Shown: piece by piece, positions 1,948 to 3,480 of the stretch
Numbering within the stretch: position 1 is the stretch's first letter
How the letters are laid out: each line of letters opens with the position of its first letter
Source of the DNA: a candidate division NPL-UPA2 bacterium Unc8
Lineage (GTDB): Bacteria > NPL-UPA2
Direction of reading: 5' to 3'
DNA length: 64,000 nt
Assembly (NCBI GenBank): GCA_003574845.1
Contig: NDHY01000005.1
Span: 3,342-67,341, forward strand
Position numbers and translations under genes: made by a program
The notes under the pieces: generated by a model
Told to the model about the DNA's origin: nothing
Database searches by the model: none
What the model saw: only the letters and a program-made list of their open reading frames with translations

Positions 1948-3480
1948 TTACTTGCTTTTCATTCTCTGAATCTTTCCAAGGTCAGATGTAAAAAGGTCCC
2001 TGATGTCCCTTATTCCCAATGTTACCATTGCCATGCGGTCAAGTCCCAGCCCCCAGGCAATCACCGGAACATCTATCCCTAATGGCAAAGTTACCTCTTT
2101 TCGGAACATTCCCGCTCCCCCCAATTCCATCCAGCCAAGCCGAGGATGCTTGAACTGAACCTCTATTGAAGGTTCGGTGAAAGGAAAGTAATATGGGACA
2201 AATTTTATCTCCTCTGACCCAGCGATGTCCAGTGCAAAAAGCCTTAAAAGCTCTAAAAGATGCCTTAAGTTAATATCCTGAGAAAGGACTATCCCCTCTA
2301 TTTGATAGAAATCAGGAGCATGAGTAGCATCCACCCGGTCATAGCGGAAGCAGCGGGCAATGGCAAAGTATTTGCCGGGAATTTCTGGTTTGGAAGCTAA
2401 CATACGCGCTGAGATGGCGGTCCCTTGAGAGCGAAGCACAAGACGCCGCGTCCTCTCCTTATCAAATTTATATCCCCACCCGGTAGAGCCTGTCTGCCAG
2501 CCGTTGATATGAGTTTGCGCTACGCGGTCAACTAAATCCCCAGGAAGTTCCGTAGCTGTTTTAGGTTCCTTGACAAAATAGACATCATGCATTTCTCTTG
2601 CCGGATGGTCTTGCGGCATAAACAAGGCGTCATTATTCCAGAATTCTGGCTCAACTATATTTCCTTTCATCTCTTTAAAGCCCATTGCCATAAGCTTGCG
2701 ACGTATCCAACTAAGAAAAAGTGCATAAGGATGCCTTCTGCCCATCTGTTGTGGAGGAGGAATTATTTTGATATTGTATTCCTTGAAATCCCTATTGCGC
2801 CAGAACTCATTCTCTAACATCTCTGCTGTTAAAGCAGAAATTGTTTCCTCAATGCCTTCTTTAAGAAGATAGTTCTGGAGAGCCGCCCCTTGCGGAGTGA
2901 GACGATAATGCCTCACAACCTCCTCACGCACTCTAAATATCTCTTTTTCTTTTCCTCTTTTCCGACTCATCATAGAGACTATCTTTCTTTCCTCGCCACT
3001 CAAGTCTTCCACTCTAAGATAGCTATTCCGTAGCTTTCTTAGGAGTCCTTCTGTCTTTTCATATTCCTCTTTCTCTTCTAATTTTAGGATGATGCCACCT
3101 TTACCAAATGAGATAACATTACGTTTTTTCATACTGCTCAGAATTGGATTTAACTCCTCTTTCTGGATGTTGACAAGGTGAGAGAGTCTCCCGATATCCA
3201 TTTTCCCCTGACGCAGAAGGTCCATTATCTTTAACTCTGGCATACCTTTCTCTAAGAGCTCTTTTCCTCTGTCAGTAATGGATACGAGAGTTCTTCTTAC
3301 TTCTTTTTCCTCTTTAATTAAATCCTTTGTTTTGAGCCACCCAAGGGTTCCCGTTATCTCCCCTGATGAAAGCTTACCAGGTGAGGTTACCTCCGTCTCC
3401 GAAAAGGAGCTTTTGGGGAGATTCTTGAGCAACAGACTCTCCCTGGACGAGAGTTTTGCTCCTATCTTTTTAACATCCAA
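1948..3480 (-). CDS. pheS: phenylalanine--tRNA ligase alpha subunit, archaeal/eukaryal-type (long N-terminal region)
   Basis: 510 aa; FWNNDALFMPQDHPAREMHDVYF, RCFRYDRVDATHAPDFYQIEG, YFPFTEPSIE, WMELGGAGMFR, AWGLGLDRMAM. Confidence 0.93.
   Translation of the reverse strand: MDVKKIGAKLSSRESLLLKNLPKSSFSETEVTSPGKLSSGEITGTLGWLKTKDLIKEEKEVRRTLVSITDRGKELLEKGMPELKIMDLLRQGKMDIGRLSHLVNIQKEELNPILSSMKKRNVISFGKGGIILKLEEKEEYEKTEGLLRKLRNSYLRVEDLSGEERKIVSMMSRKRGKEKEIFRVREEVVRHYRLTPQGAALQNYLLKEGIEETISALTAEMLENEFWRNRDFKEYNIKIIPPPQQMGRRHPYALFLSWIRRKLMAMGFKEMKGNIVEPEFWNNDALFMPQDHPAREMHDVYFVKEPKTATELPGDLVDRVAQTHINGWQTGSTGWGYKFDKERTRRLVLRSQGTAISARMLASKPEIPGKYFAIARCFRYDRVDATHAPDFYQIEGIVLSQDINLRHLLELLRLFALDIAGSEEIKFVPYYFPFTEPSIEVQFKHPRLGWMELGGAGMFRKEVTLPLGIDVPVIAWGLGLDRMAMVTLGIRDIRDLFTSDLGKIQRMKSK

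Follow-up and report, generated by a model that had tools for sequence, protein, structure and literature searches.

An archaeal/eukaryal-type phenylalanyl-tRNA synthetase at the ancestral pheS locus of the NPL-UPA2 bacterium Unc8

The NPL-UPA2 bacterium Unc8, an uncultured alkaline-spring organism that comes from The Cedars (PMC6305446), encodes an archaeal/eukaryal-type alpha subunit of phenylalanyl-tRNA synthetase (PheRS) at the locus where other classes of its phylum have the bacterial pheS gene. Here we describe this gene, found in a 64,000-nucleotide stretch of the Unc8 genome (the window), and trace its partner, distribution and origin. In our preferred reading, to which we give a probability of roughly 0.8, the enzyme is the housekeeping PheRS with an archaeal-type beta subunit, and the pair was taken up by the ancestor of the order, most likely from a bacterium, displacing the native pheST. 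Gene replacements of this kind are known, so that the case is not a new system, and standard models already label the gene correctly; new here are the polarised, in-place replacement within one phylum, the later splitting of the operon, the evidence for a bacterial immediate donor and the U20 of the cognate tRNA. In the literature searched, we found no report of an archaeal-type PheRS for NPL-UPA2, and the main text of PMC6305446 makes no mention of tRNA synthetases.

Archaeal-type PheRS has been described in Spirochaeta, Treponema and Borrelia, in which both subunits were replaced and Thermococcales were named as closest (Andam and Gogarten 2011, PMC3191353). A sequence-only reading of the window had pointed to this known transfer into some spirochaetes, and had proposed a xenologous replacement in a bacterial ribosomal context near the ancestral pheS locus, with an archaeal-type pheT elsewhere.

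The pheS gene and its locus

Features of the window, by position:
2–1921, minus: aldehyde:ferredoxin oxidoreductase (AOR) family gene, extending past the window and occupying the place of pheT in the order's other families
1948–3480, minus: pheS, archaeal/eukaryal-type PheRS alpha subunit, 510 residues, TTG start, PRK04172
1966–2778, minus: class II catalytic core, residues 235–505 (PF01409, E = 1.3e-81)
2440–2592, minus: core segment of archaeal/eukaryal length, 51 residues, from a length comparison
2584–2643, minus: signature motif, residues 280–299, 20 residues including MPQDH
2779–3480, minus: N-terminal extension, residues 1–234, with DNA-binding-like winged-helix domains as in archaeal/eukaryal PheRS alpha homologues
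3489–3495, minus: Shine-Dalgarno sequence GAGGAGG, 8 nucleotides (nt) 5′ of the pheS TTG, read from the sequence
3511–6333, minus: trkA-trkA-trkH potassium uptake genes, 2.9 kb, between rplT and pheS
6370–9273, minus: thrS-infC-rpmI-rplT, the bacterial cluster marking the ancestral pheST position

The sequence-only reading had placed a 510-residue open reading frame exactly at 1948–3480, to which we add the strand; it had also noted about 240 residues ahead of the catalytic core, in agreement with the start of PF01409 at residue 235, and a signature that is indeed present at residues 280–299. Its assignment of the protein to the archaeal/eukaryal type is borne out along the entire chain. The archaeal model NF003210/PRK04172 gives one continuous match to PheS residues 9–509 (567 bits; cut-off 350), and a bacterial PheS of the same phylum scores 226 with this model; Unc8 PheS also passes the general model TIGR00468 (345 bits; cut-off 237). 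Among solved structures, alpha chains of eukaryal cytosolic enzymes come closest (3L4G, E = 1e-68; best bacterial structure, E = 3e-32). An AlphaFold model of the protein (mean pLDDT 89.5) was aligned end to end with chain C of human 3L4G by Foldseek (519 columns, E = 5e-35), with a TM score of only 0.52 that we read as probably reflecting a difference in domain orientation. The segment within the catalytic core spans 51 residues in Unc8, 40–53 in 51 archaeal sequences and 11–18 in 34 canonical bacterial sequences. In Pfam, the N terminus has weak winged-helix matches alone (E = 0.002–0.05). From the single PRK04172 match, the fold match and the archaeal-length core segment together, it follows that the N terminus is an integral part of an archaeal-type protein and not a fusion. 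Unc8 PheS is thus not a canonical bacterial PheS, which has 330–350 residues, a PF02912 coiled coil, a short core segment and a beta subunit with a B8 domain.

The likeness to human 3L4G and the archaeal cytosolic enzymes comprises the DNA-binding-like domains at the alpha N terminus, a beta subunit without B8 and the long core segment. The phenylalanine pocket differs from the human one: it reads FPF (residues 432–434), as in bacteria and many archaea, and NPY in the human enzyme. Within the signature, MPQDH occurs in all 16 sequences of the order's clade and MPQFH in 45 of the 50 other bacterial archaeal-type sequences. Promoter and terminator scans returned sites no commoner than in shuffled sequence. 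Contigs from RNA runs cover pheS, although such contigs cannot show transcription, strand or level.

In the window, the genes run thrS-infC-rpmI-rplT-trkA-trkA-trkH-pheS-AOR, all in the same orientation. The ribosomal context that had been claimed is therefore real and the cluster is bacterial, with the qualification that three Trk genes (2.9 kb) separate rplT from pheS. The sequencing runs that contain the stretch are groundwater metagenomes, and contigs from other such runs span the AOR–pheS (X2 1–3531), pheS–trkH (X5 1675–4150) and trkH–thrS (X3 3724–9310) junctions; the same layout occurs in a Lost City genome and in relatives. Because these contigs bridge the junctions and relatives share the gene order, the locus is not an assembly chimera.

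We considered and rejected the Trk genes as donor cargo that had arrived with pheST: the named TrkH relatives are all bacterial, orthologues at 49–51% sit elsewhere in the outgroup genomes G008, G010 and G012, and Trk genes neighbour pheS at none of the other carrier loci examined. On these sequence relationships, the Trk genes are native to the phylum and were relocated to the pheS locus in this order. The sister species (G001) has an extra 2.2 kb between trkH and pheS (L081:2797–4987), which matches no neighbour gene of the window. A tRNA-Val(GAC) gene lies immediately 5′ of thrS (9273–9348, minus). Tracts of a 7-nt repeat enter the 3′ ends of trkH, rplT and pheT and give these proteins C-terminal tails (window 3511–3545 and 6370–6425; contig C1:37536–37600), and the tract length varies among runs, with 14 nt missing at 3520 and 27 nt extra at 6383.

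The partner subunit and tRNA-Phe

The Unc8 genome (996,215 bases in 24 contigs, 94.7% complete) has a 16S gene that matches the bacterial model, and its sole pheS-level match is the window gene at 1948–3480. The archaeal-type pheT predicted to lie elsewhere was located on contig C1 (37536–39302, minus) as the sole gene with a B5 domain in the genome. It encodes a short PheT of 588 residues that passes TIGR00471 (439 bits; cut-off 283) and fails TIGR00472 (132 bits; cut-off 403). The B1, B5 and catalytic-like modules are present, the B8 anticodon-binding domain is missing, and no FDX-ACB or OB match was found; the bacterial-only domains PF03147 and PF02912 match nowhere in the 94.7% complete genome. 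The protein has three cysteines in total, no CxxC motif and no four-cysteine insert, and CxxC is likewise absent from six other PheT proteins of the order. Its last ~25 residues derive from the repeat tract at C1:37536–37600.

Compared with the spirochaete enzymes (PMC3191353), the alpha subunit has 510 residues against 513–528, and the beta subunit ~565 plus the repeat-derived tail against 514–573. In both cases both subunits were swapped, and the swap marks one clade whose sister groups keep the bacterial form. The Unc8 case differs in its phylum and in the operon split in the Unc8 genus.

The single tRNA-Phe(GAA) of Unc8 carries U20, identical at that position to relatives that have the bacterial enzyme, and U20 is present in the tRNA-Phe of three genomes of the order (G000, G001 and G004). 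By contrast, G20 is a determinant for the Aeropyrum pernix and yeast enzymes, and U20 for that of Escherichia coli (PMC9976931). Among other carriers of archaeal-type PheRS, two spirochaete and one Eisenbacteria tRNA-Phe also have U20, and the tRNA-Phe of a Woesearchaeon has G20; co-adaptation to the archaeal G20 was not seen in the tRNA-Phe genes examined. Since G20 is a property of the tRNA, U20 does not bar the PheRS protein from membership of the archaeal/eukaryal type. As the tRNA retained its bacterial U20, either the enzyme would have to tolerate the mismatch, or G20 would be a weak determinant. This recalls the bacteria of the Candidate Phyla Radiation (CPR), which have archaeal-type TyrRS and TrpRS and tRNAs with archaeal identity elements (Mukai et al. 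2017, PMC5370408): there, too, archaeal-type synthetases occur in bacteria with DPANN archaea nearest, but the CPR tRNAs carry the archaeal elements, whereas position 20 of Unc8 tRNA-Phe is that of relatives with a bacterial enzyme. The tRNA-Phe gene (C1:32494–32566) shares its strand with the relocated pheT and lies ~5 kb further downstream, which may be chance.

Distribution in the phylum and origin of the enzyme

The archaeal-type alpha subunit is present in all eight genomes of the order (in G003 as a contig-end fragment only) and in none of the five genomes from the rest of the phylum. The archaeal-type beta subunit was found in seven of the eight; in G003, whose contig ends within pheS, nothing matched the PheT query. 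The five outside genomes have PheS of 335–340 residues (one partial) and PheT of 663–703 residues, and the proteins scanned from them (one alpha, three betas) pass the bacterial models. In three of these genomes (G008, G010 and G012), pheS immediately follows rplT, in line with the proposed replacement at the ancestral locus. Within the order, G002, G005 and G007 have an unbroken thrS-infC-rpmI-rplT-trkA-trkA-trkH-pheS-pheT, whereas in Unc8 (G000) and G001, which belong to a single genus, pheS is followed by AOR, with pheT at another locus behind a Yip1-domain gene. The layout rplT-trkA-trkA-trkH-pheS-pheT inside the order, against rplT-pheS outside it, indicates that the bacterial pheS at the old locus was overwritten in this order. 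In a host tree built from ThrS, InfC, L35 and L20, the order (90/92) is nested among genomes with the bacterial type (enclosing node 95/96); the gain of the PheRS therefore falls on the stem of the order, and the splitting of the operon on the Unc8 genus. The eight genomes represent one acquisition event, as relatives are not independent. The replacement that the sequence-only reading proposed is thus real, but it is old and order-wide rather than specific to Unc8, with a donor that was probably bacterial.

In G012, the thrS gene (L096:3–1721) in the canonical thrS-infC-rpmI-rplT-pheS slot encodes an archaeal-type ThrRS (PRK03991, 515 bits; cut-off 484) with a PF08915 editing domain; at this locus, a sister lineage has thus had another synthetase replaced in place. 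The bacterial PheT proteins of the outgroup (L090:4186–6228, L093:2727–4718 and L097:4716–6749) have 663–680 residues, keep B8, match TIGR00472 from position 158–160 and have no OB-domain match; judging from these sequences, B2 seems to have been lost. Some NCBI labels disagree with the genome taxonomy: L026, labelled ‘Methanosarcinales’, sits in the same phylum as Woesearchaeota, and L007 and G002, labelled Nitrospirota/Nitrospirae, are members of the window's order.

We reconstructed a PheS tree from 103 catalytic cores (267 columns) with IQ-TREE under LG+C20 PMSF, and performed approximately unbiased (AU) tests on 54 rows. The archaea in the set were Thermoproteota, Nanobdellota, one Heimdallarchaeon and unassigned representatives, with no Thermococcales or Methanobacteriota identified among the sequences. 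The catalytic core falls with the archaeal enzymes, split from canonical bacterial PheS at 100/100, as the sequence-only reading had expected of a PheRS-alpha phylogeny; the opposite placement, of the order with the bacterial PheS of its own phylum, was rejected (AU, p = 2.3e-7). The order is one clade (100/99) within a larger one of 45 rows (97/97), in which every labelled member is bacterial; spirochaetes, Nitrospirota, Eisenbacteria and WOR-3 are among them. Together with two unassigned sequences and a subset of Woesearchaeota, the closest archaea in the sampled set, the 45-row clade forms a 100/99 group inside the archaea, and FastTree with 297 rows agrees. The PheT tree agrees with this nesting and, inside the order, with the branching of the families; both genes therefore arrived together and were then inherited vertically. 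The closest relatives of the order differ: in the PheS tree they are two bacterial sequences (98/91), whereas in the PheT tree the order takes a near-basal position in the bacterial clade. Spirochaete archaeal-type PheS belongs to the same bacterial clade, but is not the direct sister of the Unc8 protein in either the PheS or the PheT tree. The spirochaete study found Thermococcales closest and we find Woesearchaeota closest among the identified archaea, a set that contains no Thermococcales, and hence our trees are no test of that study.

Outside the order, the top matches to Unc8 PheS are bacterial at ~50% identity (Nitrospirota, CSSED10-310, Planctomycetota, Eisenbacteria, WOR-3, Spirochaetales, Caldilineaceae and Leptospirillum), and archaeal matches reach 40–46%. 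The transfer into spirochaetes is one part of a far commoner trait: 25 of the 41 sampled Nitrospirota genomes pass PRK04172, and strong archaeal-type matches occur in 8 of the 41 genomes sampled from the spirochaete phylum. Archaeal-type pheST lies co-oriented, right behind rplT, at three Nitrospirota loci (L011, L012 and L015), and is convergent to rplT at three others (L010, L019 and L027). In two genomes of the spirochaete phylum (G075 and G080; loci L118 and L119), an archaeal-type pheS-pheT lies far from the main bacterial clade in the trees and represents either a second acquisition or binning contamination. No plasmid-borne archaeal-type pheS covering 80% of the query was found in PLSDB.

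The nesting of PheS among other bacterial carriers points to a bacterium as the probable immediate donor. A direct, independent transfer from an archaeon to the ancestor of the order, which would fit other archaeal-like genes of Unc8, seems unlikely to us. CdhABC, Etf and Hdr of Unc8 have been reported as archaeal-like (PMC6305446), the MPQDH of the order resembles the PQDH of most archaea and not the PQFH of other bacterial carriers, the order lies near the base of the bacterial clade in the PheT tree, and a sampled set without identified Thermococcales or Methanobacteriota leaves room for an unsampled archaeal donor. However, the named best matches outside the order are all bacterial, the order is nested in the bacterial clade (97/97 and 99/90), and its sistership with the nearest sampled archaeal clade, that of Woesearchaeota, was rejected (AU, p = 0.005).

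The archaea-to-bacteria direction is that of the best tree but not proven, because two alternative root positions, in which the canonical outgroup joins the tree at this order (AU, p = 0.108) or at the bacterial archaeal-type clade as a whole (p = 0.125), were not rejected. The second of these, a root that separates every bacterial sequence from every archaeal one, together with the spread of the form across many phyla, would accommodate a deep lineage that is the sister of the archaeal enzymes as a whole, came from a stem or extinct donor, or from an ancient second bacterial form, and was sorted by loss and re-transfer. We hold this to be quite improbable, as the best trees put the clade several supported nodes inside the archaea beside the Woesearchaeota subset (PheS 100/99; PheT 98 and 99), and within the NPL-UPA2 phylum the gain maps to one order. 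Finally, a canonical bacterial PheS with an unrelated N-terminal fusion, or an assembly or binning chimera, which the location in a bacterial ribosomal cluster, the passing of TIGR00468 and the weak N-terminal Pfam matches might suggest, can practically be dismissed in view of the continuous PRK04172 match, the archaeal-length core segment, the AU rejection, the matching archaeal-type beta subunit, the bridged junctions and the Lost City layout.

Proposed course of events and its meaning

In our preferred reading of a bacterial donor, the ancestor of the order would have acquired the archaeal-type pheS-pheT pair, most likely from the wide bacterial clade already carrying it, and the incoming pair would have taken the place of the bacterial pheST that followed rplT. 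In the stem lineage that saw the swap, the native Trk genes would also have come to separate rplT from pheS; later, in the Unc8 genus, pheT would have moved off and AOR come to follow pheS, with the host tRNA-Phe retaining its bacterial U20. By homology, and as the products of the sole pheS and pheT located in the genome, the Unc8 alpha subunit and the C1-encoded beta subunit are predicted to form an (alpha-beta)2 enzyme that activates phenylalanine in the FPF pocket of alpha and charges tRNA-Phe, with the beta subunit editing mischarged Tyr-tRNA-Phe. The tRNA would be held through the N-terminal domains of alpha, because the bacterial B8 anticodon-binding domain is absent; the architecture and tRNA-binding mode of archaeal/eukaryal cytosolic PheRS are reviewed in PMC3275996.

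Our analysis places the textbook spirochaete case as one tip of a larger bacterial clade. A bolder proposal, which we regard as a long shot, is that the PheRS of the order, spirochaetes, Nitrospirota, Eisenbacteria, WOR-3 and others forms a deep lineage of its own, which does not descend from any living group of archaea but is the sister of the archaeal enzymes, and which lost the G20 requirement; such an enzyme would charge bacterial tRNA-Phe, move between phyla and repeatedly overwrite the pheST slot behind rplT.

TIGR00468 and TIGR00472 belong to common bacterial marker sets. The xenologous alpha subunit passes the former and the beta subunit fails the latter, which calls for caution with marker-gene trees. 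The pheS gene is one more core gene of archaeal type in an acetogen discussed as an analogue of early life, though probably one obtained via another bacterium. As a shared character, the archaeal-type PheRS marks one order of the NPL-UPA2 phylum cleanly, and its pairing with a U20 tRNA poses a small, directly testable question of tRNA identity.
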